A stretch of 64,000 bases of DNA from a virus: positions 1 to 64,000 of IMG/VR virus record IMGVR_UViG_3300035117_000094; one strand, given 5' to 3'. The translations under genes were made by a program, and so were the position numbers. Position 1 is the stretch's first letter; each line of letters begins with the position of its first letter. Positions 187-47,226 of this stretch are shown here, one piece after another. The notes under the pieces were generated by a model. That model was not told the origin of the DNA and searched no databases. It saw only the letters and a program-made list of their open reading frames with translations.

Positions 187-416
187 TTACCACGCAGCCA
201 CCCATGCCCTTACCACATAGGCAGCATGCCCCTACCACGTAGCCACCCATGCCCTTACCACATAGGCAGCATGCGCCTACCACGTAGCCACCCGTGCCCT
301 TACCACATAGGCAGCATGCGCCTACCACGTAGCCACCCGTGCCCTTACCACATAGGCAGCATGCGCCTACCACGTAGCCACCCGTGCCCTTACCACATAG
401 GCAGCATGCCCCTACC
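187..416. repeat. 45-bp tandem repeat, 5 copies, degenerate tail to ~500
   Basis: Unit (C/T)TACCACGTAGCCACCC(G/A)TGCCCTTACCACATAGGCAGCATGC(G/C)C at 187, 232, 277, 322, 367; each unit has two TACCAC-N-TAG half-units. Confidence 0.95.
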
Positions 417-600
417 GCACCATGGCTATGGCCTTACCTCGCAGGCAGGCCACCATTACCGCATAAGCAGCATGCCCTTACCTCGCAGGCAGGCCACCGT
501 TACCGCCACTTGCAACCCCCGTTCTGCCTAACCCTGGCTGGCATTCCCGCCATGGCAGAATGCCGTTACCGCACTCGCAGCTAAGTTACCGCCAGGTAGT

Positions 601-715
601 GAGAACGCCGTTCTCCGTTAACGCAATACACCGTTCCAAGCGCTCACAGCGCCATGGCGCTGCGCGACCCCCGTTTGCATGCCCGTACCCGTAACGCACT
701 GAGAACGTCATTCTC
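601..715. promoter_or_regulatory. Pair of operator-like palindromes
   Basis: GAGAACGCCGTTCTC (601-615) and GAGAACGTCATTCTC (701-715), 100 bp apart. Confidence 0.45.
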
Positions 716-796
716 GCAGGTCAAAGGCGTATTACGCACGTGTAAACCGAACAGTCCCGCAGCGCTCGAATACACGTCGCATGCACGCGTGTTCGC

Positions 797-901
797 TGTA
801 ACCGTGTAACCGTAGCGTAGTTCGAAATTCGCGAGTAATTACCGCCCTGGCCAGCGCTTATGTCGTGTAACCGTAAGGTGTCCGATTCCGCTGTAACCGT
901 A
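797..901 (+). repeat. Four TGTAACCGT direct repeats
   Basis: Copies at 797, 805, 866, 892. Confidence 0.7.
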
Positions 902-1337
902 GGCCGCGCCTCACCTCGCAGTCATGCACGCACGGTAGCTAGCCGTCACGCTACGTTGAATAGCGTCGCGCGGCGCTGTAAGCCTCTGTGAGCTGCTTTC
1001 ACGCTGGCATTCAGCCCGAAACCGAGCCTGCCCCGTTAACGCGCTTCACAGTGCCCCGTAGCGCGCTACAGCCTAGGTTCCGTCCCGTACGCGCATGCGC
1101 GCGTGTCGCGTGCCCGTTCCGCCTCAGCTCGCATCTCGGCTGGCTAGTGTTCGGTAGTTCGAACATCACGCAGTCACGACAACTCACGCAAAGTAGTTTT
1201 TTCGCTCGATACAGCCCTTGACCTGCGCTTTCATCAGTGTGACCGGCGTCACATTTTCCCCGCCAACCCGCATGCGCGTTCGAATCACCCGGCCTGGCCT
1301 GCGTGTATACCCTTCACACAAGCCGTTTGACGCCGTT

Positions 1338-1365
1338 TTGATTATTCACAGCGTTGCCGTAGTGT
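1338..1365 (+). promoter_or_regulatory. Putative sigma-A/HrdB-type early promoter
   Basis: TTGATT-N16-TAGTGT directly before the structured region starting ~1373. Confidence 0.5.
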
Positions 1366-1372
1366 TCCTCTT

Positions 1373-1856
1373 GTCCGGCCAGCACGGCGGACACGGAGCA
1401 AGCGGAAGCTCTCCACGAGCCGGCCTAGAGTCTGCGCGCTACGCACGATTGGTAGAAGGCGGAAATTCGGGCCTGTATGCAAGCAAGCGGGATAGTGCCC
1501 CGTAGCTTGGCTCAAACGGGCACCAAACGCACGCTGCGCGATGACGTTGCTTGAATGGCCATATAGGCCGGCAATGAGCGGTAACCAGCAACCTAACGGC
1601 TAAGTGCGACCCCCGTTAAACAAGCTTTCGCAATGCCATGCTGCCTAGCAACCAGCGTGGTACCGCGTGAAATAACGCGCTGCGCATGCCATGCGTTCCA
1701 GCCGGTGAATACACCCGGCTCTCTCCGGTTACCGGTTCCGAGTCACTGACTCCCGTTAACCCAATGGTGAGGCTACCTACAGCCTCAATTCCTGTATGGC
1801 CCTGAATGCGCAGCGCGTGAAAGTCGCGCTTCACTACAATACGTTAGGAGTCGCAA
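1373..1856 (+). ncRNA. Candidate large structured RNA / 5' leader
   Basis: Nested long-range helices 1419-1427/1564-1572 (9 bp), 1480-1486/1547-1553, 1675-1687/1806-1818 (13 bp perfect), 1688-1694/1794-1800, plus many local hairpins; no credible ORF. Confidence 0.6.
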
Positions 1857-1916
1857 ATGTGCCCTGATTGTGACCGTACGCTAGTCAATGGTCAGTGTCC
1901 CGCTTGCGATCAATAG
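1857..1916 (+). CDS. 19-aa zinc-ribbon micro-peptide MCPDCDRTLVNGQCPACDQ
   Basis: AGGAG SD 6 nt upstream of ATG; two CxxC motifs; TAG followed by a type-B-like element, as for other early genes. Confidence 0.55.
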   Translation: MCPDCDRTLVNGQCPACDQ

Positions 1917-1965
1917 CAGTACCGCGCGCCACGGTGCCCGCAAGGGATAACCACGTAAGTCGCGC
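1914..1965 (+). repeat. Minimal type-B-like element (B0)
   Basis: TAG...CACGGTGCCC-GCAA-GGGA..CCACGT shares the CACGGTGCCC/GGGA base with B2/B3. Confidence 0.4.
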
Positions 1966-2249
1966 ATTCCTTTGGTTAGCGTCGTTTCTGCCCCCGATTG
2001 CAGCGGATTGGCCACGTCATCGCATGTTGGCTGCAATTCGCCTAAGCGGATAACGAAACGCCGCTTTCCATGGGAATTCAGTTCCCTGATAGCGTGATTG
2101 CACGCGCTAAATGATCCGCAAACCGGGAAAACGGTACGTCATGGGTAACGCTCCTGTTGCGCTATGCCCGCACTGCCGGCTACAGGTAACCGGACAATTC
2201 CGCGTGCAATCACCTATCATCCGTAGTATCAGCGTAAGGAACAACCACG

Positions 2250-2537
2250 ATGGCACTCCTGCTAGAGGCTGGCCAGACAATCGGCGCTATGATCGCGTTG
2301 TGCGTGCTGCCACTTGCCTACTCCCGGACTCGCCGAGTCACGTTCGCAGTCATGGCTTTTGCCAAGCGCCGCGCGCCACGGTGGCTAGTGCCCGTACTGG
2401 TGGCTTGCGCTTTCATCCCAGGTCCCCTAGACGAGCTGCTAGTCCTAGCAGCTGTTGCCTATCCGGTTCTCAAGTCGCAGGCTAACCGCGCGGAATTCAA
2501 GTCGTGCGTTAGCGGCGCTTGGAAGGGAAGCAAGTGA
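2250..2537 (+). CDS. Hypothetical membrane protein
   Basis: AAGGA SD; hydrophobic segments; FIPGPLDE motif. Confidence 0.7.
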   Translation: MALLLEAGQTIGAMIALCVLPLAYSRTRRVTFAVMAFAKRRAPRWLVPVLVACAFIPGPLDELLVLAAVAYPVLKSQANRAEFKSCVSGAWKGSK

Positions 2538-2953
2538 ACACGGAATTCGTCGCTCGCGAGCGTGCCCGCATGGCACGAGAAGCGGCTGGCATCATGCCCG
2601 CATCGCTCACGGCCACGATGGAAGGGCGCGGCATGAACCGCACTCCCCCTCACGTGGCTACTCCTCAGGTCGCAGGCGTAATGGCGACTCGTCACGATGT
2701 AGACTTCACTCCGCACTCTGGTCAGCGCATGCGCCGACGCGCGTCACAGCGCCACAAGGGGCACAAGTTCACGCGGTTCGGTGCCATCGGCGCGATACCG
2801 CGCGGCGTTGCCGACACGGCTACCTCTGGCCGTGCCCGCCGCGCGAGCGATGCCGATAGCGGCGCTAGCACGTACGGTAGCCTGCCGGCGTTGCCCCCCG
2901 CTGGCATGACTGACCTGTCAATGCGGTATGAGCCAAACGGGCGGAACCTGTAA
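2534..2953 (+). CDS. Hypothetical basic protein
   Basis: GTGA overlap with upstream stop. Confidence 0.55.
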   Translation: MNTEFVARERARMAREAAGIMPASLTATMEGRGMNRTPPHVATPQVAGVMATRHDVDFTPHSGQRMRRRASQRHKGHKFTRFGAIGAIPRGVADTATSGRARRASDADSGASTYGSLPALPPAGMTDLSMRYEPNGRNL

Positions 2954-2955
2954 CC

Positions 2956-3375
2956 ATGAGTCACTACGCGTACTCTCCCGTAGGGTACTCATTCAACGCT
3001 GATGACTACTGCCTAGACTGCATTCCGCAGGTAGCCGCGATAGCCGGTAAGGGCAACGGTGGTAACGGCAGTAAGCGCGGGGAATGCAACTGCGCGGAGT
3101 GCCGACTTGACCGCATGGCAGCGGCGCGCGGCATCAATCGCATGGATGAGCGCACCTTTGACAGTGGCGACTTTCCCAAGCACATTCCGTACCACAATGA
3201 CATTCACTCGGAATGCGGCCCTGATCACTATCAGGATGAGGATCACCCGTCTGAGTGGTCATGCTACGCGCGCTGCGGGAAATGCCACAAGGTTATCGAT
3301 GGCACGAGCAACTCGTCCGGTCCTGACACGTGCCCGTCAATGCCGGAGCCTGCCGAGACTGAGGACGACGATTAG
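2956..3375 (+). CDS. Cys-rich hypothetical protein
   Basis: Several CxxC motifs; ends at element B1. Confidence 0.75.
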   Translation: MSHYAYSPVGYSFNADDYCLDCIPQVAAIAGKGNGGNGSKRGECNCAECRLDRMAAARGINRMDERTFDSGDFPKHIPYHNDIHSECGPDHYQDEDHPSEWSCYARCGKCHKVIDGTSNSSGPDTCPSMPEPAETEDDD

Positions 3376-3458
3376 CACGCCGGCACATGGTGAGGCTGGC
3401 CAGGCGCAAGGGCGGAGCCTGCCCTTTTTGACCTGGCCAGCAACGCCACGCGCTTACG
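3373..3458 (+). repeat. Type-B element B1 (diverged)
   Basis: TAG..CGCCGGCAC.TGGTG-[GCTGGCCAGG/CCTGGCCAGC hairpin]-ACGCCACGCGCTTACG. Confidence 0.75.
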
Positions 3459-3501
3459 CGCTGGCAGCAACCGACAGAACGCAAGGGAAGGGATAGCAGT
3501 C

Positions 3502-4005
3502 ATGCCCCGTAGCGTAACGGCAGTGGCCGATATGGCTGGCATGTGGTGGGACGCCGGCGTAGTGGAGTACGTCGGGCGGTTTGACGCGTCCGAATTCGCG
3601 CGTCGCATGCTGACCAGCACAGCGCACGCCGCACTGTGGGCCGACTCCTCGCATGATGAGGACACGGACGGGAACGGGAAGTTCACGGAGGAGATAGACG
3701 ACTACGCTAACGGCTATGCGCCGGATTACGAGGACGCGCTTCCCGACGACGCGCGAGTCCAGCTGGAAACGGATGTTGACGACTTCATTCGCTCGGCATG
3801 GGTGTACCTCACGCTTGACAACATCACTCCGGAGCAAGCGGGACACGATTTCGAGTTGTCCCGTAACGGCCACGGTGCCGGATTCTGGGACCGTGGCTAC
3901 TCGCACGGGGACGAGCTGCATTCACTCGCCGAACCGTATGGCACGTTCGGCTTGGACGTGTCCGGCCACGGTGAGGACATGACCGTTTACGGATTCCACG
4001 GCTAG
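3502..4005 (+). CDS. Acidic conserved phage protein (GHDF..SRNGHGAGFWDR motif)
   Basis: Recognisable phage motif; D/E-rich. Confidence 0.8.
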   Translation: MPRSVTAVADMAGMWWDAGVVEYVGRFDASEFARRMLTSTAHAALWADSSHDEDTDGNGKFTEEIDDYANGYAPDYEDALPDDARVQLETDVDDFIRSAWVYLTLDNITPEQAGHDFELSRNGHGAGFWDRGYSHGDELHSLAEPYGTFGLDVSGHGEDMTVYGFHG

Positions 4006-4006
4006 C

Positions 4007-4114
4007 ATGAATGACCAGCAACGCCGGCAACTGCACTTCTGGGTAGCCGTGCTATCCGTAGCTTGCTTCGTGCTGGGATTCACCCTAGCCCTAGCGATAA
4101 TGACAATGCCGTGA
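4007..4114 (+). CDS. Small membrane protein (35 aa)
   Basis: Starts 1 nt after upstream stop; single hydrophobic helix. Confidence 0.5.
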   Translation: MNDQQRRQLHFWVAVLSVACFVLGFTLALAIMTMP

Positions 4115-4156
4115 GCGCACCAATCTACGCATACCAGAGCTAAGGACAATAAGCGC

Positions 4157-4336
4157 ATGCGCAAGCTTCTACTCCCTGTCATCCTGGTCACGCTATTGTC
4201 GGCCGGCATCGCCGCAGGCATGGCCGCAGCGCCATTCCTCCACTTCAACGGGGGTGACTGGTCAGCGGGCACTAACACGGCGTACTGCGGCGTGTACTGG
4301 CCGCGCGCTGATTTCTACTGCCAGCGCGCTGGCTGA
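4157..4336 (+). CDS. Small secreted protein (59 aa)
   Basis: AAGGA SD; signal-peptide-like MRKLLLPVILVTLL; ends at element A1. Confidence 0.6.
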   Translation: MRKLLLPVILVTLLSAGIAAGMAAAPFLHFNGGDWSAGTNTAYCGVYWPRADFYCQRAG

Positions 4337-4399
4337 CACGACTGCCCCGTTAACGGCGTGATGCCGCCCGATCGGATCGGGCACGGGGCGCGCAGGCAT
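4334..4399 (+). repeat. Type-A element A1 (diverged)
   Basis: GCCCCGT-TAAC-GGCGTGATGCC-GCCCGAT CGG ATCGGGC-ACGGGGC-GCGC. Confidence 0.9.
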
Positions 4400-4421
4400 C
4401 ACCTATAAGAGAGGCTCGGCA

Positions 4422-4820
4422 ATGGCAGTCATGACGTACGGTACCGATACCGGTTACCCTGCCGTGATAGACGAGGACACCAAGGCGGTTACGTTCCGAT
4501 GCGTAGCGCATCAGGTTGACCCTAGCGCATGCGCGTTGTGCGCTGCCACGGAACGTGAGGGTTTCCTGGGCAAGCACACCACGCACTATCCCGCTTACGT
4601 CAACTCCCGTGGCACGCTGGTTACCACGTTCGGGGGATTCGAGCTTGGCGTCATCATCAGGTACCGTACGGGACGCCGGCGCTGCACTCCTACGGGCGGG
4701 TACTACCGGCTGGAGTACGTGACCGTCCGGGACGCCCATGGCGGTATCTGGCACGGTGCGCACAACAGCGACGGCGGTAACCTCGTGCTGCTGCGCAAGT
4801 CACGGAAGGCGGCGAGGTAA
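4422..4820 (+). CDS. Hypothetical protein
   Basis: GAGAGG SD after A1. Confidence 0.75.
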   Translation: MAVMTYGTDTGYPAVIDEDTKAVTFRCVAHQVDPSACALCAATEREGFLGKHTTHYPAYVNSRGTLVTTFGGFELGVIIRYRTGRRRCTPTGGYYRLEYVTVRDAHGGIWHGAHNSDGGNLVLLRKSRKAAR

Positions 4821-5299
4821 TGCCCGCGACACTGACAGAGCATCCCGGCATCGTTGACCAGGGGACGCCTCACGAATTCTACAGTCCGTTCATCAAGTGG
4901 GAAGCCGAAAGCACGTCGGGCAGGTACGGGGAAGTGCAGCGACGCGGGCGGGCAGCGCAGATCAGCGCCGCAAAGCGCGCTTGGGTCAAGGCTCACCCGG
5001 GGCATTTCCTGTTCCTCTGTGATCGCAGCTACTCTGAGACCTGGGGTTTCCTTCACCAGTCAGCATTCCGTTACCGCGTCATCAGGTGCGACGCGATTAC
5101 CGGCGACGTGAGCAGCATGAATTGCTCGGATGACCTGCGCGTTGTCTGGTATGGCAAGGAGACTCCGGCGCTGGCATGCGGCTATCACGCGGGTAACTAC
5201 CCGTGCGCGGTCTACCGTGGCCATCACATCCGCGCGGCATACGAGGCTGAGCAGTACGCGAAGCTTAACGGCAAAATCTGGAAATGGCCCTACAAGTAG
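4820..5299 (+). CDS. Hypothetical protein
   Basis: TAATG coupling. Confidence 0.7.
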   Translation: MPATLTEHPGIVDQGTPHEFYSPFIKWEAESTSGRYGEVQRRGRAAQISAAKRAWVKAHPGHFLFLCDRSYSETWGFLHQSAFRYRVIRCDAITGDVSSMNCSDDLRVVWYGKETPALACGYHAGNYPCAVYRGHHIRAAYEAEQYAKLNGKIWKWPYK

Positions 5300-5311
5300 A
5301 GAGGTAATCGC

Positions 5312-5569
5312 GTGACCGGATTCGTTGGCGGTTACAGGGACATGGCCGGCATCACGAGCCGCGCTAACAGCGCACTGTGCCGGATTGAGTACATCCACGG
5401 CATGGGGCACCTTCCCCCCGCCGTGAGGCTTGCCCTGATCGCCGAGGTGATCGCGCATGAGCCGATCCTCACTGACACGTGCCCCGCCGCGTATACGGTG
5501 CGCGAGCTAGCGTGGCCTGCGCAAGGCAGCGCGCCGCGCGTCCACTGGGACGGCAGGCTAGGGCGGTGA
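5312..5569 (+). CDS. Hypothetical protein
   Basis: GAGAGG SD. Confidence 0.6.
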   Translation: MTGFVGGYRDMAGITSRANSALCRIEYIHGMGHLPPAVRLALIAEVIAHEPILTDTCPAAYTVRELAWPAQGSAPRVHWDGRLGR

Positions 5570-5847
5570 AGATAACCACGAACAACGTCCCGCGATTCAC
5601 CGTGGACAGTTGGGATCTAACGCCGGCGGAACGCGAGGAGTTCGATTACCTGGACTGGCCGGCGCTTGATGAGGGAACCGATAGCGCGACGTTCTTCCGC
5701 TACAAGGGCACCGTTTACGGCCTTGACCAGTTCATGCGCACGGGTCAAGAGGGATGGGAGGGGTACCTCGCATTCTCCTGGTCATGTGGCCTGCTTATCC
5801 GCCTGCCAGACGAGGACACGGTGGTTGTGGGGTTCTTCTCCGGCTAG
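5566..5847 (+). CDS. Conserved phage protein (TNNVPR..EFDYL..FFRYKG)
   Basis: GTGA overlap; recognisable phage motif; ends at B2. Confidence 0.8.
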   Translation: MKITTNNVPRFTVDSWDLTPAEREEFDYLDWPALDEGTDSATFFRYKGTVYGLDQFMRTGQEGWEGYLAFSWSCGLLIRLPDEDTVVVGFFSG

Positions 5848-5927
5848 CGCCGGCGCACGGTGCCCTTCCGCCTGGTCCTGGCCGGCGCTGGCCAAGACCA
5901 GGCGGAACGGGACGCCGCGTGCTTACG
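5841..5927 (+). repeat. Type-B element B2
   Basis: 87 bp identical to 7333-7419; long bulged hairpin TTCCGCCTGGTC/GACCAGGCGGAA. Confidence 0.95.
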
Positions 5928-5962
5928 CACGGCAATCCGATACGAGACGAGAGGAAAAGCAC

Positions 5963-6271
5963 GTGCCCGTTAAGGTACCATCGGCCGACCAGAGGGTTAC
6001 CGCGCAAGCTGCGGCTGAGTACTTCTGGCTAGTGGCCACGCGCGATGACCGCACCGTGAGCACTTACGACACGGCTTACTACATCACGGCCAAGCGCGCG
6101 TTCATCGTCGCTGTAAGGCAGGCATACGGCATCGGGGCACGACGGGCGGAACGGGTTTACGAGGCGCTTTCCGCCTACGGGCCATACGACACGCTTTCGG
6201 GCACCACGGGACGCGGCGTTGAGTCCTACGTGCAATTCGTCGTTAAGTACCCGCGAGAGAAGGTTTACTGA
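5963..6271 (+). CDS. Hypothetical protein
   Basis: GAGAGG SD before GTG, after B2. Confidence 0.7.
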   Translation: MPVKVPSADQRVTAQAAAEYFWLVATRDDRTVSTYDTAYYITAKRAFIVAVRQAYGIGARRAERVYEALSAYGPYDTLSGTTGRGVESYVQFVVKYPREKVY

Positions 6272-6669
6272 TGAGCGACGAAATGCGAGTTAGGTTCCCC
6301 GCCGGCGCGCGGGTACTGTGGACGGGCAGCAGTCCCCGCCCGTTCTCACAGAACGTGAACGCGCCGGCGAAGGTGCAAGGATGGCAGCGCGATTCCCTCA
6401 CTCGCGGCCACCTGGTCTTCTACGTGTCGCTAGACGGCGGCCCGAGCCACGCCACGGCGGGCGATTCCCAGCTGCGCTACCCGTGCCCGCAATGCGGGGA
6501 GCCGCTGGAATGGCGCGGCCCGTTTGACGGGCGGGCGGCGTCCACGGGAGTCACGGGCGGGCATGAGGGGTTCGGCGAAACGCTGATGTGCGACGCCGGC
6601 CACTGGCACGCGTTCATTCAGCTTGGCGTGATACCTCCCGAGCGCATCCTTACCGTGATCGACCTCTAG
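6271..6669 (+). CDS. Hypothetical protein with zinc-ribbon (CPQC..CxxxH)
   Basis: TGATG coupling; ends at A2. Confidence 0.7.
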   Translation: MSDEMRVRFPAGARVLWTGSSPRPFSQNVNAPAKVQGWQRDSLTRGHLVFYVSLDGGPSHATAGDSQLRYPCPQCGEPLEWRGPFDGRAASTGVTGGHEGFGETLMCDAGHWHAFIQLGVIPPERILTVIDL

Positions 6670-6731
6670 CACGGAGCCTCGTCAACGGCGTGATGCCGCC
6701 CTGTCGAACGGGGCACGAGGCGCGCAAGGAC
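6667..6731 (+). repeat. Type-A element A2
   Basis: GGAGCCTCGTCAACGGCGTGATGCCGCCCTGTCGAACGGGGCACGAGGCGCGCAAGG. Confidence 0.95.
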
Positions 6732-6757
6732 ACCAACCACGATCGAAGGGTAATTCA

Positions 6758-7339
6758 ATGGCTTGGAACGTTTACGCGATGCGCACGGCTAACCAGGGCA
6801 AGGGCGGTCACTGGTTTGATGCGGGCGCAATGCGCTTCTTCAATGGCCGCATCAGCGGGGAGGTTCACAGCGCGGGCAAGAATGCCGGCCAGTACTTCGT
6901 GTCATCCGAGCGGTACGACGACGACACGCCGCGCCTCTACTCAGTGCGCCGGTTCGATCCTGAGACGGCCGACGTGATGGATGCCCCGGGGCATCACTTC
7001 CAGGAGTACGCGTCATTGTCCGGCGCGCACGGCGCGGCCAAGCGCGCGGCGGCCAAGGAGGCGGCGACGGGATGGTGCAAGCGAGACGCCGACGCGCATT
7101 CCGGCCACCTGAGAGGGAGTGACAAGGCGTGCCCGAACTGCGGGACAATCGCGCTGGCCAAGACGGACGAGTGGATGATCACGGGCATCGCGTCCGATGG
7201 TAACCGGGCGCGGTTCGTCATCCACGACTCGCGCGAGTTCGCCGACGTGGCCGCGCACGCTGCGGAATCGGCTGCCCGCGTGTGGGGGGAAGGCTGCCTG
7301 ATAACTAACCTCACCATGCAAGAGGCAACACGCGGCTAG
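6758..7339 (+). CDS. Conserved phage protein (GHWFD..MRFF..YFVSSE..R.YSVR)
   Basis: Recognisable phage motif; bounded by A2 and B3. Confidence 0.8.
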   Translation: MAWNVYAMRTANQGKGGHWFDAGAMRFFNGRISGEVHSAGKNAGQYFVSSERYDDDTPRLYSVRRFDPETADVMDAPGHHFQEYASLSGAHGAAKRAAAKEAATGWCKRDADAHSGHLRGSDKACPNCGTIALAKTDEWMITGIASDGNRARFVIHDSREFADVAAHAAESAARVWGEGCLITNLTMQEATRG

Positions 7340-7419
7340 CGCCGGCGCACGGTGCCCTTCCGCCTGGTCCTGGCCGGCGCTGGCCAAGACCAGGCGGAAC
7401 GGGACGCCGCGTGCTTACG
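7333..7419 (+). repeat. Type-B element B3
   Basis: Identical to 5841-5927. Confidence 0.95.
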
Positions 7420-7460
7420 TGAATAGCACGAAACCTGCCCACATCACGAGAGGTACGACG

Positions 7461-7634
7461 ATGGACCTTGACACGCGCGCCACTGCTCCCGGTTTCTACG
7501 TGGAATCGCTGGAGGGTAACGAGTGGCTGACATTCAAGGCCGGCACGCGGAAGCGCGCCAAGCGCGCGGCCAGCCGGCGACTCCGCCACACGACGCGGGC
7601 CAAGCTCCGCCGCGCGGATTACAGCGACTTCTAG
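7461..7634 (+). CDS. Small basic hypothetical protein
   Basis: GAGAGG SD; bounded by B3 and A3. Confidence 0.6.
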   Translation: MDLDTRATAPGFYVESLEGNEWLTFKAGTRKRAKRAASRRLRHTTRAKLRRADYSDF

Positions 7635-7698
7635 CACGAGGAGCCTCGTTAACGGCGTGATGCCGCCCTGTCGAACGGGGCACGAGGCGCGCAAGGCA
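7632..7698 (+). repeat. Type-A element A3
   Basis: Near-identical to A2. Confidence 0.95.
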
Positions 7699-7726
7699 CC
7701 CCACCACATGAGAGGCATAACCAGTC

Positions 7727-8242
7727 ATGGGACACAAGCCACTGCCCGCGCACCGAGACGACCTGTTTTACCGTCACACGGTGCTGCCCGCCGCGCGCCG
7801 CATCGCGGCCAGCATCATCGACGACGCGCGGGCCAGCACCACGCCCGTCGCGTGGGTCACGGGCAATTCCTACATGCCGCCGGCGCGGTCGTTCACCGAA
7901 TTCGAGATGGTCTGGCAGCACCGCCTTAACGAGAGCACGCCGGAACGCCCGTACGCCGGCGGCCAGATGTCAGAGGCGATGTGGGAGGAGATCGAGCGAA
8001 TCCTCACTGAGGCGGACGTGTACACGGCGTGCCCCGACTACGATAACTCCATCTACGCGGTTGACTCCCGCCGCTGGGAGTACATCGGAGAAGACAACCC
8101 CGCGTTTGACGAGTTCGACATGAACGGGGAGTACCTGCCCGTGGTGCGCGCCGGCGTGACGTGCCCCGAGTGCGGTAAGTCGCACAAGGCAGGATCGGCA
8201 ACGCTGGCCAAGTGCGCCACGGCGCGCGGGCTGCCGGCGTGA
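7727..8242 (+). CDS. Hypothetical protein, C-terminal CPEC..H..C
   Basis: GAGAGG SD after A3. Confidence 0.75.
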   Translation: MGHKPLPAHRDDLFYRHTVLPAARRIAASIIDDARASTTPVAWVTGNSYMPPARSFTEFEMVWQHRLNESTPERPYAGGQMSEAMWEEIERILTEADVYTACPDYDNSIYAVDSRRWEYIGEDNPAFDEFDMNGEYLPVVRAGVTCPECGKSHKAGSATLAKCATARGLPA

Positions 8243-8400
8243 CCGGGGAGCCTGCCCCGCTGACCGATACGCGGGAGGCGCTGGCCGCCATGTGCGAGGA
8301 CGAAACTTACGCGCCATGGCTAGCACGGCAGGAGGCGAACAGCCGGCCCGTGGGAATGGTGCGGTTCGCCGATGATCCTGCCAAGGATTACCAGGTATGA
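8239..8400 (+). CDS. Small hypothetical protein
   Basis: GTGA overlap; ends at A4. Confidence 0.55.
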   Translation: MTGEPAPLTDTREALAAMCEDETYAPWLARQEANSRPVGMVRFADDPAKDYQV

Positions 8401-8403
8401 GAA

Positions 8404-8462
8404 GGAGCCTCGTCAACGGCGTGATGCCGCCCTGCCGAACGGGGCACGAGGCGCGCAAGGAC
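8404..8462 (+). repeat. Type-A element A4
   Basis: One substitution vs A2. Confidence 0.95.
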
Positions 8463-8488
8463 ACAGTCACGCACGAAGGGAAAGCACG

Positions 8489-8974
8489 ATGCGCAAGCCG
8501 CTGAAGGACACGAACAAGACCTACGCCACGCTTAACGCACTGCTCGGCAGCCTGCCAGAATTCCGTCCCGCCCCTGTTCGCTCGGATGTTGCCGGCGTTA
8601 TCCTCGCCTGCTGGGAGGCGGGCCTGATCACCACGGACGAGCTTGCGTGGGAAGTGCTGCGCATAGTGGAGCACGACGTTGCCGATGGCTTCGTGCCGTG
8701 GGACGTGTCGTGCTTCGGGCAGCTCCACGATTTCGTGGACGCCAACATGTACACGGACGAGCTGATCGGGCTTGCGGAGCCGGACGACGAGGACGACGAA
8801 CGGCACATCGCCATTCACAACGCCGTGACCAGCCGCGTTAACGAGCTGCTTACGGGAAGCAAGGAGACGCCGGCGTACTACGCGGACGGCTTCCCGTGGC
8901 AGGAGATGCAGGAGCGCGGCAAGTCACGCGATACCGACATGGCCGTGTACCTGGTCAGCATGGGCAGGCGATAG
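8489..8974 (+). CDS. Acidic hypothetical protein (LHDFVDAN motif)
   Basis: GAAGGG SD after A4. Confidence 0.75.
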   Translation: MRKPLKDTNKTYATLNALLGSLPEFRPAPVRSDVAGVILACWEAGLITTDELAWEVLRIVEHDVADGFVPWDVSCFGQLHDFVDANMYTDELIGLAEPDDEDDERHIAIHNAVTSRVNELLTGSKETPAYYADGFPWQEMQERGKSRDTDMAVYLVSMGRR

Positions 8975-8977
8975 GAG

Positions 8978-9583
8978 ATGACGATCATGACAGCGCCGGT
9001 TACGTACACGTTCGACGTGGTAACCGTCACCACGATCCGCGTTACGGTCAGCGGCGGCGAGGAGGCAGCGCGGGCAGCCATCGCCGGCCTGGAATCCCTC
9101 GACATCGACGCCGTGATCACGGGCACGGAAGGCGGCGCGGAAGACGCGAGCTACAGCCCGACGTGCATAAGCCCGCGCGGGAAGGCAGCGCTCGTGCATG
9201 CTACGGGAGCACACGGCGAGGACATGCCCGTGGAAGAGGACGAGGGACTCGCCGAGCCGCTGTTCAGCACGGGCGAGGCACGGGAACTGATCACGGACGG
9301 CTGCGACGACCACGGCGGCGAGGAGGCAGCGCGAGACGCGCCGGATACGCCCCTCACCGTGTACGTTGTCACAGAGGGCGCTGATATCGAGTGCTGCGAG
9401 CACCACGGCGCGTTCAGCACGCCGGAGAAGGCAACAGGGTACGTGAACGCCAGCGCTAAAGGCGGCGCGCACTGGTACGCTAACCCGTTCCACGCGCGGT
9501 CTAGGCACGGCGGATCGGAATGGACGATCGTCCCGATGATCCTTGACGAGCTAACACCGAACACCCACCAGGAGGCATCGTGA
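8978..9583 (+). CDS. Acidic hypothetical protein
   Basis: Packed ORF; internal 21-bp direct repeat (9052, 9313). Confidence 0.65.
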   Translation: MTIMTAPVTYTFDVVTVTTIRVTVSGGEEAARAAIAGLESLDIDAVITGTEGGAEDASYSPTCISPRGKAALVHATGAHGEDMPVEEDEGLAEPLFSTGEARELITDGCDDHGGEEAARDAPDTPLTVYVVTEGADIECCEHHGAFSTPEKATGYVNASAKGGAHWYANPFHARSRHGGSEWTIVPMILDELTPNTHQEAS

Positions 9584-9957
9584 CCGAAGAGGCACAGTTC
9601 ACCGAAGAGGAGATCGCGGCGGCCATACCGCAACTGCCCGACTGGCAGCGCTACGATAACGCGGCGGTCCTGTACACGCGCGGACCGGTAAGCGCGGTCG
9701 TGCTGGCCGCGTTCGCCGAGCTGGCCAGCGCGATCAGCAACAGCACCGATGGCGGCGCGAGCGTTGCCACGGAGTACGGGCAGCTAGCCGCGCGTGTGGC
9801 CAAGCCGGCGGCGGACGTGCGAGAGTGGGCGCTACGGCACCTTCGCCAGCAGGCGGAGAAGGCAACGGCCGACAAGCACATTCTTGCGTGTGAGAACGCG
9901 GAGAGGGCAGCAGCCGTTGCCGATGCCGAGCGCTTGCTCAGGCCGGCCGCCACCTAG
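9580..9957 (+). CDS. Hypothetical protein
   Basis: AGGAGG SD, GTGA overlap; ends at A5. Confidence 0.7.
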   Translation: MTEEAQFTEEEIAAAIPQLPDWQRYDNAAVLYTRGPVSAVVLAAFAELASAISNSTDGGASVATEYGQLAARVAKPAADVREWALRHLRQQAEKATADKHILACENAERAAAVADAERLLRPAAT

Positions 9958-10022
9958 CACGAGGAGCCTCGTCAACGGCGTGATGCCGCCCCGTCGAACG
10001 GGGCACGAGGCGCGCAAGGACA
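9955..10022 (+). repeat. Type-A element A5
   Basis: T->C converts a G.U pair of P2 to G-C. Confidence 0.95.
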
Positions 10023-10045
10023 TAACCGCGAGCGAAGGGCACGAC

Positions 10046-10489
10046 ATGACCAATCCCGCAGACGACATCGCCAACGCGGACATCAGGCGAGCGCGCACGG
10101 CGCTGGCCGTCATGTCCGCGCCGGCCGGCCAGCTCGGCACGGACGCGCACGACACGCTGCTCCGTAACGCTGCGGAGATCCGCAGGTTCCTGGACCGGCT
10201 GGAAGGCCAGCGGCTAGCCGAGCGGCGACGGCAAGGAGACTTCACCCCCGAACTGGTCACGCTGGAGGCGCAAGCCGGCGAGCTGCGCGCCCTGTCCTCC
10301 GAGCTGGGTAACGTCGCATTCGAGGTGACCGCGCAGCGCTCGGGCATGTCGCGCAACGGCCACGACGCGAGCGACGCGATGCAAGTGCAGGAGTACGGGC
10401 GCACGGTCGAACTGCTCATCGGCAAGCTGACCGTGGTGCGCGATACGCTCAGCGCGCTCGGGTCAGCGTTCGGCGAGCCTGCCGCATGA
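10046..10489 (+). CDS. Hypothetical helical protein
   Basis: GAAGGG SD after A5. Confidence 0.7.
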   Translation: MTNPADDIANADIRRARTALAVMSAPAGQLGTDAHDTLLRNAAEIRRFLDRLEGQRLAERRRQGDFTPELVTLEAQAGELRALSSELGNVAFEVTAQRSGMSRNGHDASDAMQVQEYGRTVELLIGKLTVVRDTLSALGSAFGEPAA

Positions 10490-10764
10490 GGCTCGGCAAC
10501 GGGCGGCCGGCGGGACCGCGCATGCTGGCCGCCTGGAGGTACGTGCAAGAGCACCCAGGCTGCCCGATCCTGCCCGTTGCGGAGGCGGTCGGCCCGCACG
10601 GCTCACGGAAGTTCGGCTACCGCAGCGTTCACAGGGCGATCAGCGCCGGCCTGATCATGGCGGCGAGAGACTCGCGCGGGCGGTACAGCCTCACGGCCGA
10701 AGAGGTGACCGTGCACCCGAGCGTCACCCGCACCCCGTTCAGCAACTACGTTCAGAGACGATAG
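10486..10764 (+). CDS. Possible winged-helix protein
   Basis: ATGA overlap; wHTH-like pattern. Confidence 0.55.
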   Translation: MRLGNGRPAGPRMLAAWRYVQEHPGCPILPVAEAVGPHGSRKFGYRSVHRAISAGLIMAARDSRGRYSLTAEEVTVHPSVTRTPFSNYVQRR

Positions 10765-10776
10765 GGGAGGCACCCC

Positions 10777-10980
10777 GTGAAGGTCTCGCGAATCAAGCCG
10801 TACGGCGACGAGTACGACCGTCACGGGATAGTCATCGCTCGTCAGTACCTGTGCTGGATGGCCGATCAGACGGTACTTACCGTGCACGTGCCGGCCACCT
10901 ATCGCGGGCGCGAGAAGAGTCGCGCGGCACGAGCGCTGGCCGTGGCCAAGTGGAAAGAACAGCAGAGGAGAAACCCGTGA
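10777..10980 (+). CDS. Hypothetical protein
   Basis: GGGAGG SD. Confidence 0.6.
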   Translation: MKVSRIKPYGDEYDRHGIVIARQYLCWMADQTVLTVHVPATYRGREKSRAARALAVAKWKEQQRRNP

Positions 10981-11468
10981 AACTGCATACCGTCCTTTAC
11001 ACCCAGGACATCCGCAACGCGCTCCAGCGCGCTAAGGCCGCTGGCCGCGTGACCGCTGACGTGGAGCTTGTCCAGCTCAAGCCCGAGGGATCGCGTACGC
11101 ACCCGTACGGGTACCTCGTGCAGCTAGGCACCTTCGACCAGGACAGCCTGCCGGCGGGCACGACCGACCAGCACGGGCGGCGCATGAACGTCCGCAGGTA
11201 CAAGAACAGCGGCGACTCCGGCGCGGCGTCGGAGTACTACGGGCGCGACGGCGCGGTATGGGCGGCCACGTACCACGAGTGGGGATGGTTTATCGCGGAG
11301 CTGTTCGCCGCCGACCCGACCGCCTCGACCAGTGCCTCGTACGGGCGCTACAAGAGCGCTGAGGACTTCCGCGAGCAGACGAACGGCGCGTACGAGCTGC
11401 CCGTTCCCGCTGAGCCGCGCCACTGGCACCCCAACATGCACGGGGACTACACGGGCGGCATCCGCTAG
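10977..11468 (+). CDS. Conserved phage protein (AATYHEWGWF)
   Basis: GAGGAG SD, GTGA overlap; ends at A6. Confidence 0.75.
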   Translation: MKLHTVLYTQDIRNALQRAKAAGRVTADVELVQLKPEGSRTHPYGYLVQLGTFDQDSLPAGTTDQHGRRMNVRRYKNSGDSGAASEYYGRDGAVWAATYHEWGWFIAELFAADPTASTSASYGRYKSAEDFREQTNGAYELPVPAEPRHWHPNMHGDYTGGIR

Positions 11469-11533
11469 CACACGGAGCCTCGTCAACGGCGTGATGCCGC
11501 CCTGTCGAACGGGGCACGAGGCGCGCAAGGACA
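11466..11533 (+). repeat. Type-A element A6
   Basis: Core identical to A2. Confidence 0.95.
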
Positions 11534-11557
11534 CGACCACGAGCGAAGGACACGCGC

Positions 11558-11788
11558 ATGAAGTACGTCATCAGCGAGAAGACCGCTGACCTGATGAAAG
11601 ACCTGTTCGAGCAGCTAATCAACGAGGCCGATCACCTGGTTAGCCATCCGAGCGCAGAGGGCCAGTTCTTCGACACCACGTCGGGGGGCGCGTGCTCGCG
11701 CGAGGATATCGCGGGCATCCGCGACGACATGAGGGCCGCGCTCGGCGAACTGGACCGTCAGCGCGGTGCCGTGATCATCAACACCTAG
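11558..11788 (+). CDS. Hypothetical protein
   Basis: GAAGGA SD after A6. Confidence 0.7.
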   Translation: MKYVISEKTADLMKDLFEQLINEADHLVSHPSAEGQFFDTTSGGACSREDIAGIRDDMRAALGELDRQRGAVIINT

Positions 11789-11806
11789 GGAAAGGCACCT
11801 GCTACC

Positions 11807-12031
11807 GTGACAACCATGTACGAGCCTAAGGTCAACCAGCCGCGCCGTGTCACGCACGAGCTAGCCGGCGAGGAAACAGACATCGTGCCCGAGCTAACGG
11901 GCTTCTTCGAGCGGCCGGCATACGCCACGCTGGCCGACATCACGACGGCGCTCGTGGAGGAGACCGACCCTCACGAGCTGCACCGCCTTCAGGGCCTGCT
12001 GGACAGCGTGCGGGCAGGGGAGATCGGATGA
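11807..12031 (+). CDS. Hypothetical protein
   Basis: Packed ORF with SD. Confidence 0.6.
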   Translation: MTTMYEPKVNQPRRVTHELAGEETDIVPELTGFFERPAYATLADITTALVEETDPHELHRLQGLLDSVRAGEIG

Positions 12032-12423
12032 CCGGCAGCGGCGTAACGAGGCAGCCTGAAAACGAGCCTGAGGACGCCGAAGCCGGCAAGGAGCTGCTTG
12101 ACCTGATCGTGAAGATGGTGCCCCCCGTGCTGTGGGAGAAGGTGCCCGCTAACAAGGACACGTCCGTCCTGATCGCCCGTGAGGGCGCGTGGGAGGCACC
12201 CGAGCCGGCGGCGGCCATCCGTGCCGTCATGCGCGCGGGCAGCGACGCGAACTTCGCCGGCATGGGAGACGACGAGGTGAGGGCACTCCGCCTCGTGGCC
12301 TTCGACTTCCTCCGGGTAGCCGATGAGGAGCTGTTCTACCGCAGGACAGTCGCGCCCGCCATGCGGGCCATAGCCCAGGCGAGCACGCTCATCCTGCGTG
12401 ACGCCGGGGAAGGAGGCAGCTGA
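12028..12423 (+). CDS. Hypothetical protein
   Basis: ATGA overlap. Confidence 0.65.
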   Translation: MTGSGVTRQPENEPEDAEAGKELLDLIVKMVPPVLWEKVPANKDTSVLIAREGAWEAPEPAAAIRAVMRAGSDANFAGMGDDEVRALRLVAFDFLRVADEELFYRRTVAPAMRAIAQASTLILRDAGEGGS

Positions 12424-13310
12424 TGCAGAGGCTCCGGGTACTGCTGGCCTGCGAGTGCAGCGGGCGAGTGCGAGACGAGTTCGCCAAGCGCGGGTGGGAG
12501 GCCGTCTCGGCGGACATCCTGCCGAGCGAGACGCCCGTGGACCGCAGCATGGTCTCAACGCTGATCCACGGGCAGGGAAGCGCGGGGCAAGGACCGGAAG
12601 AGTTCCACTCACCTGTTGAGACAGGGACAGGCGGCTGGCAGCGCTGGGACGCGGGCGGCTCAACGGCGCACTACCGGGGCGACGTGCGAGACCTTTTCAG
12701 CTGGGATCACCCGGTGAACAGGTCTCGTATCCAGCCGGGCAAGCCCGTTAACGAGCAGCTTCCCCCGTGGGATCTCGTCATCGCGTTCCCGCCGTGCACC
12801 CGGCTGTCGTACGCGGGCAACCGCTGGCGGAAGGAGTGGCAGGCCAACGGCGAGGAGGACGCGGGCGCGGCGTTCTTCATGGACATGATCAGCGCGCCGT
12901 CGCCGCTAGTCGCGGTCGAGAACCCGCGCGGCGTGATGTTCCAGCGCTACCGCAAGCCTGATCAGGCGATCCAGCCCTGGTGGTTCGGTGATCCGTTCCG
13001 GAAGACCACGTGCCTGTGGCTGAAGGGGCTGCCCCCGCTGGTGCCGGAGCTTACTGAGCCGGAAGTTCTGGCGACCGTCAGCTCCGGCGACCTGGCCGGC
13101 TACCGGCTGCACCGTGCCGCGACGGGCGGGGGGTCGCACCGCACCGACGCGGGCGCGGAGCACCCTGCCCACGACTTCGGCGGCCGGAAGCACTACGAGG
13201 ACAGCGAGGGGCGCGTGAACCGGGCGAAGGTCCGGTCCCGCACGTTCCCCGGCGTCGCCCGTGCCATGGCCGCCCAGTGGGGCGCGTTCGCGGAGAAGTA
13301 CCACAGCTAG
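12423..13310 (+). CDS. Putative DNA cytosine methyltransferase (phage type)
   Basis: RVLLACECSG motif-I variant, FPPCT catalytic motif IV, ENP motif VI, RSRTFPG C-terminus. Confidence 0.8.
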   Translation: MQRLRVLLACECSGRVRDEFAKRGWEAVSADILPSETPVDRSMVSTLIHGQGSAGQGPEEFHSPVETGTGGWQRWDAGGSTAHYRGDVRDLFSWDHPVNRSRIQPGKPVNEQLPPWDLVIAFPPCTRLSYAGNRWRKEWQANGEEDAGAAFFMDMISAPSPLVAVENPRGVMFQRYRKPDQAIQPWWFGDPFRKTTCLWLKGLPPLVPELTEPEVLATVSSGDLAGYRLHRAATGGGSHRTDAGAEHPAHDFGGRKHYEDSEGRVNRAKVRSRTFPGVARAMAAQWGAFAEKYHS

Positions 13311-13372
13311 GCAACCCGCCCCCGTAACCGCGTGACGCCGGCGATCGGATCGCCACGGGGGCACGCACGCCA
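13308..13372 (+). repeat. Type-A element A7 (most diverged)
   Basis: GCCCCCGT-AAC-CGCGTGACGCC-GGCGAT CGG ATCGCC-ACGGGGGC-ACGC. Confidence 0.8.
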
Positions 13373-13400
13373 CACCCAGACCGCTAGGAAAGGCACTCTC

Positions 13401-13814
13401 ATGTCAAAGGGCATCTTCGACCTGTCCGCCGAGGACATCATGTACTCGCGTGACGTGGACGCGCGCATCGCCGGGCTTGAGCAGGAGATCACTGCGCTGC
13501 TAACCCCGGACCCGGGCGACGGCAGCCCCGAGATAGACGAGGCCGCCGAGCTGGACGCCGAGCTTACCGAGCTGAAGGAGTTCCGCGACACCGTGACTCG
13601 CAGCCCGGCCGGGGACGGCTGGGACAGGGATCGCGGCATGTCCTTCATCAACGTCCGCTACTGGGACCAGTACGCGAGTGAGCAGGCCGGCGAGATCTAC
13701 GGCGAGGCTACGAGCACTGAGTTCTGGGACGGCGGGAAGTGGTCGGCCCGCCTTCAGCGGGACTTCGCCGAGGTCAGGCTGAACGGCGACGTGTTCCTGT
13801 ACGACGGCAGGTAG
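13401..13814 (+). CDS. Acidic ArdA-like antirestriction protein (putative)
   Basis: D/E-rich; C-terminal WD..KW.ARL..DF..V.LNG..FLY resembles the ArdA C-terminal pattern. Confidence 0.55.
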   Translation: MSKGIFDLSAEDIMYSRDVDARIAGLEQEITALLTPDPGDGSPEIDEAAELDAELTELKEFRDTVTRSPAGDGWDRDRGMSFINVRYWDQYASEQAGEIYGEATSTEFWDGGKWSARLQRDFAEVRLNGDVFLYDGR

Positions 13815-13817
13815 CCG

Positions 13818-13843
13818 GGAATACTCGCGACCGTTCACCGGTT
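13818..13843 (+). promoter_or_regulatory. ECF-type promoter GGAAT-N18-GTT
   Basis: Exact match, intergenic. Confidence 0.85.
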
Positions 13844-13873
13844 ACACAATGCGAGCGATGAGAGGAGACACGC

Positions 13874-15037
13874 ATGCAGACTCGCGAGCTAACACCGCTA
13901 GACTACGCACGGGCCTTCGCCGGCCGGCTGGTCTACGCGACCCCCGAGCAGCTTGACGCGCTTACCCTGCTGGTCACGGTCAGCCACGTCATCAACTGCT
14001 TCACGACCGTGCCGCGCGGGCTGGCGGTCAGCGACGAGCCGGGGTCAGGCAAGTCCACGGTCCTTCACTTCGCGCGGATGCTGGGCTGGCGGGCCTGGTC
14101 GGGCACTAACGCCACGGAGCCGGCGATCAAGGCCAAGTTCATCGAGGGCGAGTGCACGCTCATCGTGGACGAGATATCCAAGCTGTTCGGCGAGTCCGGC
14201 ATGAACGGCAAGAACAGCAAGCTCTACCAGCTTCTCGTGTCCGGGTACGAGTCCGGGGCGACTACGGCGTTCAGCGCCGGGCGCGTCACGGAGGACGTTC
14301 CGATCTACGGGGTGGCCGTCGCCGCCGGGCTGCGCAAGGCAGCACCGGACGACCTGCGGTCCCGGTCGGTTATCTGGCAGATGAAGCCAGCGCCGCCGGC
14401 CGTGGCGGAGGCGCTTGAGGACGCGCTGGACCCGAGCACCCGGGCTTACGGCCTGGACCTGGGCAAGGCGCTGCACAAGTGGGCGCGGTCCAGCGCCGAG
14501 GAGATGCGCGAGTTCGCCAAGAACGGGCTTCGCGGGCTGCACCCCAAGCTGAACGGGCGGCGGCGGCAGGTGTGGGGTCCGCTGTTCGCGGTCGCGCACG
14601 TGGCTGGCAGCGACTGGCCGGCGCGGTGCCTGCGGGCGTTCCTCGACCTCGCGCTTGACTCCGGCGAGCGGCCGGTCCTCGTGCCCGAGGAGCAGGTTCT
14701 CCTGGACGCTGCGGACTTCACCGGGCAGCACGGCACCGAGGAAGGCTGGATTACGTCCCGCGACCTGCTGACGTGGCTGAAGGGCACCGAGCGCGAGCTG
14801 TACTGGCCGATGTCGGACCGGGCGCTGGGCAAGCTGATGACGGCGACGCTGGGAGCGACGCGAGCGGAGCGCTGCTCGTTCGTGTACCCGCAGCCGGAGG
14901 ACGAGGGCAAGGTACCCGTGCACAAGGGGTGGTTCATGGCGGAGCACCTGCTTCACGCCGCCGACCTCCGCGCCCAGCTTAACCTCGTGCTCCACGAGAA
15001 GCAGGAACCCGACGACATCGACATGATGTTCGAATAG
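13874..15037 (+). CDS. P-loop ATPase (DUF3631-like)
   Basis: Walker A EPGSGKST, Walker B LIVDE, RSRS arginine finger. Confidence 0.8.
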   Translation: MQTRELTPLDYARAFAGRLVYATPEQLDALTLLVTVSHVINCFTTVPRGLAVSDEPGSGKSTVLHFARMLGWRAWSGTNATEPAIKAKFIEGECTLIVDEISKLFGESGMNGKNSKLYQLLVSGYESGATTAFSAGRVTEDVPIYGVAVAAGLRKAAPDDLRSRSVIWQMKPAPPAVAEALEDALDPSTRAYGLDLGKALHKWARSSAEEMREFAKNGLRGLHPKLNGRRRQVWGPLFAVAHVAGSDWPARCLRAFLDLALDSGERPVLVPEEQVLLDAADFTGQHGTEEGWITSRDLLTWLKGTERELYWPMSDRALGKLMTATLGATRAERCSFVYPQPEDEGKVPVHKGWFMAEHLLHAADLRAQLNLVLHEKQEPDDIDMMFE

Positions 15038-47057: not shown

Positions 47058-47226
47058 GTACATGTCGCGGGATGGCCCTGAGGGACCGGAGCGCGAGCTG
47101 CACGACAAGTGAACCCGGCACAAAGGGCATCCAGGCATTAGAGGGGTAGTGACCCCGCGCCATCAGCCGAGACAGCCGAGACCAGTAGTTCCAGTCAGTC
47201 ACGACAACGCCACGAGAGGCACCCAC

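Follow-up and report, generated by a model that had tools for sequence, protein, structure and literature searches.

A branched, seven-copy repeat at early gene junctions of an uncultured actinophage, a candidate intercistronic RNA module

Structured elements in the gaps between early genes have been described in several phages. Phage T7 carries the intercistronic RNase III sites R0.3, R0.5, R1, R1.1, and R1.3 on its long early transcript, where they set the mRNA ends; these sites form helices of approximately 20 bp or more with an internal loop, their cleavage is proven, and protective hairpins are left on the products. The lambda nut site (boxA and boxB) and the HK022 put site are cis-acting RNA hairpins of early transcripts; a genome has one or two of them, located directly downstream of promoters and ahead of terminators, with boxA single-stranded. 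The PeSLs of T4-type phages consist of a stem-loop and a Shine-Dalgarno sequence, are repeated between unrelated small early genes, and have been proposed as points of homologous exchange; the stem-loop can sit between the −35 and −10 elements (PMC2839356, PMC4122927). In actinophages, the ESAS/SAS repeats of cluster K and the CR3/CR4 stem-loops of cluster M are conserved, actinophage-specific repeats that contain inverted repeats (PMC3203893, PMC11373665, PMC7953290). Here we describe type A, a repeat found in the early arm of IMG/VR virus record IMGVR_UViG_3300035117_000094. The window that we analyzed is the first 64 kb of this linear record of 103,588 bp, which is estimated to be 88% complete.

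Type A is real and structured, is absent from Rfam, has a distinctive branched core, and is known from one genome. An earlier note on this DNA, made from the sequence alone, had reported a seven-copy RNA motif with compensatory base changes and had taken it for an undescribed cis RNA element. The present analysis adds that type A is the core of a module of approximately 90 nt, that other types of hairpin occupy equivalent gaps, and that comparable phage repeats are known.

Copies and fold of type A

The core AACSGCGTGAYGCC occurred seven times, always on the + strand (4352, 6684, 7651, 8415, 9974, 11485, and 13326), against 0.24 occurrences expected by chance. A covariance model constructed from the seven copies was run on the whole record and returned only these copies with scores of 61–88 bits, and the next-best match scored 13.8 bits. 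Both the pattern count and the model therefore bear out the seven copies of the earlier note. The motif is 45–46 nt long. A repeat finder reported a 51-nt family with six copies and a 90-nt family with five copies (A2–A6), A7 being more diverged. The copies and their contexts are as follows, with covariance model scores in bits.

A1, 4344..4394, + strand: P1 of 7 bp, linker TAAC, mini-hairpin GGCGTGATGCC, P2 GCCCGAT-CGG-ATCGGGC, tail GCGCA; stop TGA 4334-4336, next ATG 4422; 81.2 bits.
A2, 6676..6726, + strand: core and tail; stop TAG 6667-6669, next ATG 6758; 86.9 bits.
A3, 7643..7693, + strand: core and tail; stop TAG 7632-7634, next ATG 7727; 87.3 bits.
A4, 8407..8457, + strand: core and tail, with C.A at the P2 loop-closing pair; stop TGA 8398-8400, next ATG 8489; 84.7 bits.
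A5, 9966..10016, + strand: core and tail, with P2 fully Watson-Crick (GCCCCGT); stop TAG 9955-9957, next ATG 10046; 88.4 bits.
A6, 11477..11527, + strand: core and tail; stop TAG 11466-11468, next ATG 11558; 86.9 bits.
A7, 13318..13367, + strand: P1 of 8 bp, linker AAC, CGCGTGACGCC, P2 of 6 bp GGCGAT-CGG-ATCGCC, tail ACGCA; stop TAG 13308-13310, next ATG 13401; 61.2 bits, the most diverged copy.

Every copy gave the same fold on the + strand. P1 (7–8 bp) closes a junction that contains a linker of 3–4 nt, the mini-hairpin GGCG-UGA-UGCC, and P2 (6–7 bp) with a CGR loop, and the 3′ strand of P2 continues directly into the 3′ strand of P1. The consensus of the linker and mini-hairpin is AAC-SGCGUGAYGCC. 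The stems were those given in the earlier note: P1 is GCCTCGT/ACGAGGC in A2–A6, GCCCCGT/ACGGGGC in A1, and GCCCCCGT/ACGGGGGC in A7, and the 5′ arm of P2 is GCCCTGT, GCCCCGT, GCCCGAT, or GGCGAT, each with its complement and a CGA or CGG loop. The claim of a conserved linker also held, with 15 of 15 positions kept in A1 and 12 of 15 in A7 despite the diverged flanks and stems. The flanks of A1 are unrelated to those of A2–A6, yet its linker is identical and its stem changes are compensated.

The stems vary among the copies while staying paired. Pair counting showed that 97% of the cells were paired and that six pairs had changed on both sides, two of which (in P1) are a register effect of the extra C-G pair in A7. 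None of 500 shuffled controls was as good, and slid partners paired at just 35–56%. RNAalifold, run unprompted, returned the identical three helices. The events visible by eye in P1 are the replacement of U-A by C-G (A1 and A7) and the insertion of a C-G pair (A7); those in P2 are the swap of two adjacent pairs (A1 and A7), the flip of one pair together with the deletion of another (A7), and the change of U.G to C-G (A5). The single mismatch is the C.A in A4, where one U-A pair changed without compensation. The wobbles are G.U on the + strand (U31.G39 in four copies and G19.U23 in six) and C.A on the − strand, on which the mirror fold is lost in three of the seven copies. Stem changes are compensated and the wobbles depend on the strand, as had been claimed; the copies thus say that a single-stranded fold of the + strand is likely to be under selection.

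The alternative pairing proposed for GCGU was also found. These bases can pair within the mini-hairpin or, in all seven copies, with the RCGC tail in a 4-bp pseudoknot, which is preserved through one change of U.G to U-A. The mini-hairpin and the pseudoknot are indistinguishable on the present data. In A1 only, the leader GGCATCAC (4395-4402) is a perfect 8-nt complement of GTGATGCC in the mini-hairpin (4358-4365); this could be a further alternative pairing, not retained in the other copies.

The junction module and known classes of element

Type A forms the core of a stop-to-start module with the same layout at all seven sites. The preceding stop codon ends 6–8 nt before P1 in every copy, and the next start codon lies 32–38 nt past P1, preceded by GAAGGG, AAGGA, or GAGAGG as the Shine-Dalgarno sequence. 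This fixed spacing holds even where the flanks differ (A1, A4, and A7). The following site illustrates the whole module.

6667..6760, + strand: stop codon, 6–8 nt, 46-nt fold, 32–38-nt leader, start codon.

A2–A6 are near-identical across the entire module, so that the internal copies appear homogenized and the edge copies diverged. The leaders are A/C-rich, with 28–36% A against 16% genome-wide and 0–12% T. Two coding explanations of the junctions were examined and rejected. Read-through or frameshift fusion at the stop codon is contradicted by the varying frame relation of the upstream and downstream genes, only A7 being open in frame, and a small upstream open reading frame (ORF) at the conserved GTGATG loses its ATG in A7 and encodes peptides that are not conserved. 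The enrichment of TAG at the junctions is not meaningful, as TAG accounts for 44% of the stops of this phage, and the motif CGCAAGG is frequent in its coding DNA.

Comparison with Rfam 15 at the gathering threshold gave only four tRNAs in the 64-kb window and left type A unmatched, and at E ≤ 10 over bases 1–14000 no match fell on any copy. The families considered included hammerhead, twister, twister-sister, pistol, hatchet, HDV, exoribonuclease-resistant RNA (xrRNA), and mini-ykkC. The earlier statement that type A does not fit the hammerhead, HDV, twister, or pistol cores thus stands, and because no match appeared at E ≤ 10, the known small ribozymes, xrRNAs, and riboswitches are excluded as families. 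ARAGORN found no tRNA or tmRNA gene in bases 1–15000, and the Rfam tRNA model was likewise unmatched there. The lack of a U-tract was also confirmed: the tails are GCGCGCAAGG, GCGCAGGC, and ACGCACGC, and a terminator scan flagged none of the copies. Type A is therefore not a canonical terminator. No convincing trans-acting RNA complementary to the linker was found in the genome.

Promoter and DNA-level classes were compared in the same way. On the + strand, no unit contained a SigA −35 (TTGACA-like) and −10 (TANNNT) pair spaced by 16–19 bp, and the reverse complement has TTGACG without a −10 at valid spacing. A sigma-54 site (GG-N10-GC in GGCACGAGGCGCGC) was rejected, its spacing being broken in A7; to our knowledge, actinobacteria lack sigma-54. 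AAC-N17/18-CGR is present in all seven copies, but its "spacer" is the most conserved part of the repeat, whereas the −10 context varies (GTC, ATC, GCC), and it differs from the extracytoplasmic function (ECF)-type motif of the phage itself (GGGAAT-N18-GTT). A scan of the large ORFs revealed no phage RNA polymerase, no RNA polymerase family search having been made across the record; these ORFs encode lectin-like or glycine-rich tail proteins, a primase, DNA polymerase A, and an SNF2 helicase. In regard to integron attC sites, the AAC is unpaired and has no GTT partner for R″(RYYYAAC)/R′(GTTRRRY) pairing, and no integrase was found in the record.

The position and shape of type A were also set against the intercistronic systems. 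A T7-type RNase III site has a helix of approximately 20 bp, whereas P1 has 7–8 bp and P2 6–7 bp with a junction between them. In regard to lambda-type nut sites, P1 pairs the boxA-like bases, every copy is located past the terminator at 3408-3429, and the phage encodes an arginine-rich immediate-early protein. The layout of PeSLs is shared: a repeated stop-to-ATG module with a stem-loop and a Shine-Dalgarno sequence lies between unrelated small early genes.

The early arm, its source, and relatives

The G+C content (GC) of the window is 58% at the left end and climbs to approximately 70%. Searches with the terminase and DNA polymerase gave matches solely in actinobacteriophages with identities of ≤33%, and no tyrosine or serine recombinase (PF00589, PF00239) was matched across the record. 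Because of these distant matches and because integrases were not found, the source is an uncultured, distant actinophage that is probably lytic. It also encodes Ku, a DUF3631 protein, and an NlpC/P60-SLT lysin. From 2.2 to approximately 23 kb, every gene is on the + strand, and neighboring genes within the early groups abut or overlap. From 4.3 to 13.4 kb, each gap of ≥60 nt is occupied by type A or by an 87-nt long hairpin. The other features of the early arm are as follows.

2191-2220: SigA-like promoter upstream of the type A array.
2250-3375: three-gene immediate-early operon, ending in a hairpin with T5 at 3408-3429.
5841-5927 and 7333-7419: 87-nt long hairpins, two copies with 100% identity, directly after TAG stops.

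The hairpin with T5 is the sole canonical intrinsic-terminator-like site of the early arm, and no recognizable promoter was seen between it and the next gene (3502). Its presence indicates that U-tracts are in use in this type of host. The surrounding region after the third gene (3396-3440) is nested, with an outer stem CTGGCCAGG/CCTGGCCAG and an inner hairpin AAGGGCGG-AGC-CTGCCCTT followed by five T (3425-3429). In the immediate-early operon, ORF 2534-2953 encodes a protein of 139 amino acids (aa) with a pI of 11.6 and 14% Arg, for which no relatives were found in Pfam, PHROG-type, or protein-atlas searches. Its N-terminal ARERARMAREAA stretch is reminiscent of the arginine-rich RNA-binding motif of lambda N. 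We regard this protein as a candidate RNA-binding or antitermination factor.

The 87-nt hairpins are near-perfect (approximately 27 bp, −59 kcal/mol) and occupy the same type of intercistronic gap as type A; they look more like RNase III substrates than type A does. On the − strand, they also matched the mraW RNA weakly and below threshold, with 28 and 24 bits where the gathering score is 50. GGGAAT-N18-GTT, which we consider a putative ECF-type (SigR/SigH-like) promoter motif, was found eight times, on the + strand only (13817, 17516, 41184, 45023, 48406, 54664, 60860, and, beyond the window, 88341). The type A array spans 4.3 kb up to the first of these motifs, which begins 4 bases past the last type A cassette (stop 13812-13814). 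One phage sigma factor was found, a sigma-70 region-2 protein at 55421-56044.

Two further repeat regions were noted. The left end (1-2250) is a 2.2-kb region of lower GC that is non-coding except for an ORF of 19 codons (1857-1916); it contains six to seven 45-nt tandem repeats (137-490) and abundant GTTACCG, GTAACCG, and CCGTTAAC words, and may serve as an origin, for packaging, or as an array of sites bound by proteins. At 47232-47486, inside an ORF of 408 aa (47149-48375), imperfect repeats spaced by 12–36 nt, mostly by 15 nt, form a long run that encodes a low-complexity stretch rich in Gln, Gly, Tyr, and Pro.

Relatives of type A were sought at several levels. In IMG/VR, a 14-mer scan gave chance single matches only, a structured pattern gave two chance matches in coding DNA, and a 17-mer gave 12 chance matches, all scoring ≤20 bits by the covariance model. 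The structured pattern gave at least 120 single chance matches in GTDB genomes, with no stems among the matches listed. Single-protein scans with the neighboring proteins yielded no relatives. An alignment of DUF3631 homologues provided 22 metagenome loci and 3 viral loci, and neither type A nor a multi-copy equivalent was present in these loci, which cover 30–60% DUF3631 identity and leave out homologues P0002–P0006 (61–64%). A few early genes recur in the relatives, in a different order. A homologous GGAAC-N18-GTT is kept ahead of the DUF3631 gene in one relative (L131:581-609). In another, from IMG/VR (L153:6575-6995), the early gaps carry one or two very stable GC hairpins right after the stops, without a U-tract and each unique in sequence. 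Because these gaps also carry post-stop hairpins, hairpin punctuation seems to be general in this phage group and the repeat families specific to this genome.

Interpretation and comparison with known systems

The sequence shows a repeat that varies without losing its fold, on one strand and in a fixed geometry, with no promoter or terminator consensus. These findings are accommodated best, in our tentative judgment, by a composite reading of type A as a cis-acting, RNA-level intercistronic module that is also a recombination junction. An undescribed cis RNA element on the mRNA-sense strand, as the earlier note had it, remains the best fit to the compensated stems, the strand-specific wobbles, and the lack of an Rfam match and of a U-tract. 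None of the three mechanisms offered with it was shown: a ribozyme has neither a model match nor a catalytic sign, a barrier to exonucleases such as RNase J would be compatible with the position and with a possible pseudoknot, and a nut/put-like antiterminator fits poorly.

The + strand carries the mRNA sense, and between the gene groups there is no consensus for a promoter or a terminator; the early arm can therefore be read as a single long transcript, or a small number of them, punctuated at the RNA level by type A. During transcription, a compact three-way junction would form 6–8 nt past the last stop of each gene group, consisting of P1, the AAC linker with either the GCGUGAYGC mini-hairpin or the 4-bp RCGC-tail pseudoknot, and P2. 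The fold would thus be placed as near to the terminating ribosome as possible without being unwound. It would block 3′-to-5′ exonucleases and protect the upstream segment; an endonuclease cutting in the single-stranded, C-containing flanks would give the downstream segment a structured 5′ end that resists the entry of RNase E or RNase J; and the fold would keep the A/C-rich leader and the ribosome site free of long-range pairing. In mycobacteria, RNase E cleaves unpaired RNA on the 5′ side of C, with a preference for 5′ untranslated regions (UTRs) and co-transcribed gene junctions, and RNase J acts on highly structured RNAs (PMC10641625). By analogy, such processing agrees with these data. The invariant linker and mini-hairpin point to a specific partner, a protein or the RCGC tail, and the nucleotides that stay both unpaired and invariant most likely form a surface recognized by a protein of the host or the phage. 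The module is probably a homologous-recombination junction for swapping gene groups as well, because it is identical between unrelated genes with the internal copies homogenized and the edge copies diverged; the different early gene order in the relatives supports this. If type A acts at the RNA level, it would show how a high-GC phage organizes an early transcript of approximately 11 kb without internal promoters or classical terminators, and it could provide a 46-nt insulator or stabilizer part for actinobacterial expression.

Several points weigh against this composite reading. The folding energies are no better than those of shuffled GC-rich sequence (z approximately −0.2 to −1.4). In a 300-nt context, equilibrium folding gave the fold a high probability in A2, A3, and A5, a weaker P1 in A1 (0.61) and A7 (0.30), and a near-zero probability in A4 and A6. 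Because A2–A6 are near-identical over approximately 90 nt, the copies represent only about three independent lineages (A1, A2–A6, and A7); the covariation is intragenomic only, and type A is a single-genome family among the sequences searched. Co-transcription is deduced solely from the lack of recognizable promoters and terminators. A classical RNase III site requires longer helices than those of P1 and P2 (7 + 7 bp), and a generic barrier leaves the invariant linker sequence unexplained. Phage intergenic repeats have, moreover, often proved to be promoters, as in the repeats of HF2 (PMC8707807) and in cluster K ESAS, which has been re-read as a promoter with an inverted repeat (PMC11373665).

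These precedents, together with the PeSL stem-loops, bear on the main rival, which we consider unlikely: that type A is a factor-dependent delayed-early promoter, maybe with a PeSL-like hairpin. The recognition element, AAC-N17/18-CGR or SGCGTGAYGCC, would be read by the RNA polymerase of the host together with either an alternative sigma factor or a factor that the phage makes from the immediate-early operon, and transcription would start near the RCGCA tail. We take AAC followed by CG after 17–18 nt to resemble an ECF −35/−10 layout. The slot of type A ahead of gene groups is that of the GGGAAT-N18-GTT motifs from 13,817 on, the array extends as far as the first of them, and the distance to the start codon is similar (approximately 30 nt after the −10 there and 32–38 nt after P1). 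However, conservation is highest in what would be the spacer, what would be the flanks change in a compensated way, and the G.U wobbles are asymmetric, none of which a promoter predicts; the P2 loop context is not a conserved −10; and neither a SigA −10/−35 on either strand, nor an RNA polymerase among the large ORFs, nor a second sigma factor was found. The rival readings are not all exclusive of one another. Control of read-through is plausible where a terminator is followed by no recognizable promoter, and type A might then be an attenuator that pauses or stops transcription without a U-tract, or a nut-like antitermination site served by the predicted basic, arginine-rich protein of ORF 2534-2953. 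The early terminators of the Streptomyces phage phiC31 reportedly have no U-tails (Ingham 1995, as cited in PMC2602773), which gives a precedent for the attenuator. Nevertheless, we rate this explanation as rather improbable: processive antitermination takes one site per transcript and not seven, all copies lie downstream of the sole canonical terminator with the boxA-like bases locked in P1, and the candidate protein has no detectable relatives or family. A branched fold of 7 + 7 bp without a U-tract is also a poor intrinsic terminator, and mycobacterial polymerase reportedly needs U-tracts.

The remaining explanations concern other uses of the fold. Type A could be the phage counterpart of the exoribonuclease-resistant RNAs of eukaryotic viruses, in which a junction locked by the 4-bp pseudoknot would stall the 5′-to-3′ exonuclease RNase J of the host, or the site of a dedicated phage or host endoribonuclease, either of which would yield seven stable, fold-capped messages; we hold this to be improbable. 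The hairpins could instead act in single-stranded DNA only, as an attC-like site, a miniature mobile element, a single-strand initiation signal, or an operator. The unit edges are sharp at the stop and start codons of unrelated genes, the internal copies are homogenized, gene order varies in the relatives, G.T wobbles are tolerable in + strand DNA, and AAC recalls the attC R boxes; but the record yielded no recombinase, the missing GTT partner leaves no attC R″/R′ layout, target-site duplications are lacking, and neither IMG/VR nor the GTDB matches listed contained a further copy. The fixed register to the stop codon and ribosome site points to gene expression, and a role at the DNA level only is, in our estimate, very improbable. 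Type A could also be a self-cleaving ribozyme of a new class, by which the early transcript would be cut at every junction; in favor are the small three-way junction with invariant unpaired nucleotides, a possible pseudoknot, and a useful position. With no Rfam ribozyme match at E ≤ 10, no nucleotides between P2 and the 3′ strand of P1, a small conserved core with nothing specific for catalysis, and a low prior, we give this idea hardly any credence.

Among the known systems, the PeSLs are the closest in layout, sharing with type A the stop-to-start module of stem-loop and Shine-Dalgarno sequence. In PeSLs, a promoter of sigma-70 consensus accompanies a simple G/C hairpin at which transcription terminates, whereas type A has no recognizable promoter, a branched fold, and an invariant linker, and occurs in a high-GC actinophage. 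The RNase III sites of T7 are the closest in proposed role, but type A has two 7-bp helices around a junction. ESAS/SAS and CR3/CR4 resemble type A in lying just upstream of non-structural gene starts, in one orientation, with a function that was long unclear. Cluster K ESAS has SigA-like −35/−10 hexamers and SAS overlaps the ribosome site; these cluster K and M inverted repeats are conserved whereas type A covaries, and there is no sequence similarity between them. Intrinsic terminators, including the U-less early ones reported for phiC31, are GC hairpins right after stops, as is type A, which differs in its branching, its invariant interior, and a ribosome site at a fixed distance. A terminator at type A without a following promoter would, moreover, leave the downstream genes untranscribed. 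In regard to lambda nut and HK022 put, the P2 5′ arm GCCCUG equals the start of the lambda boxB stem, and GCCUCGUUAAC is loosely boxA-like; type A differs in its seven copies and in the pairing of the boxA-like bases. By analogy with these systems, type A looks to be a local form of the structured repeats that other phages are known to carry at gene junctions.

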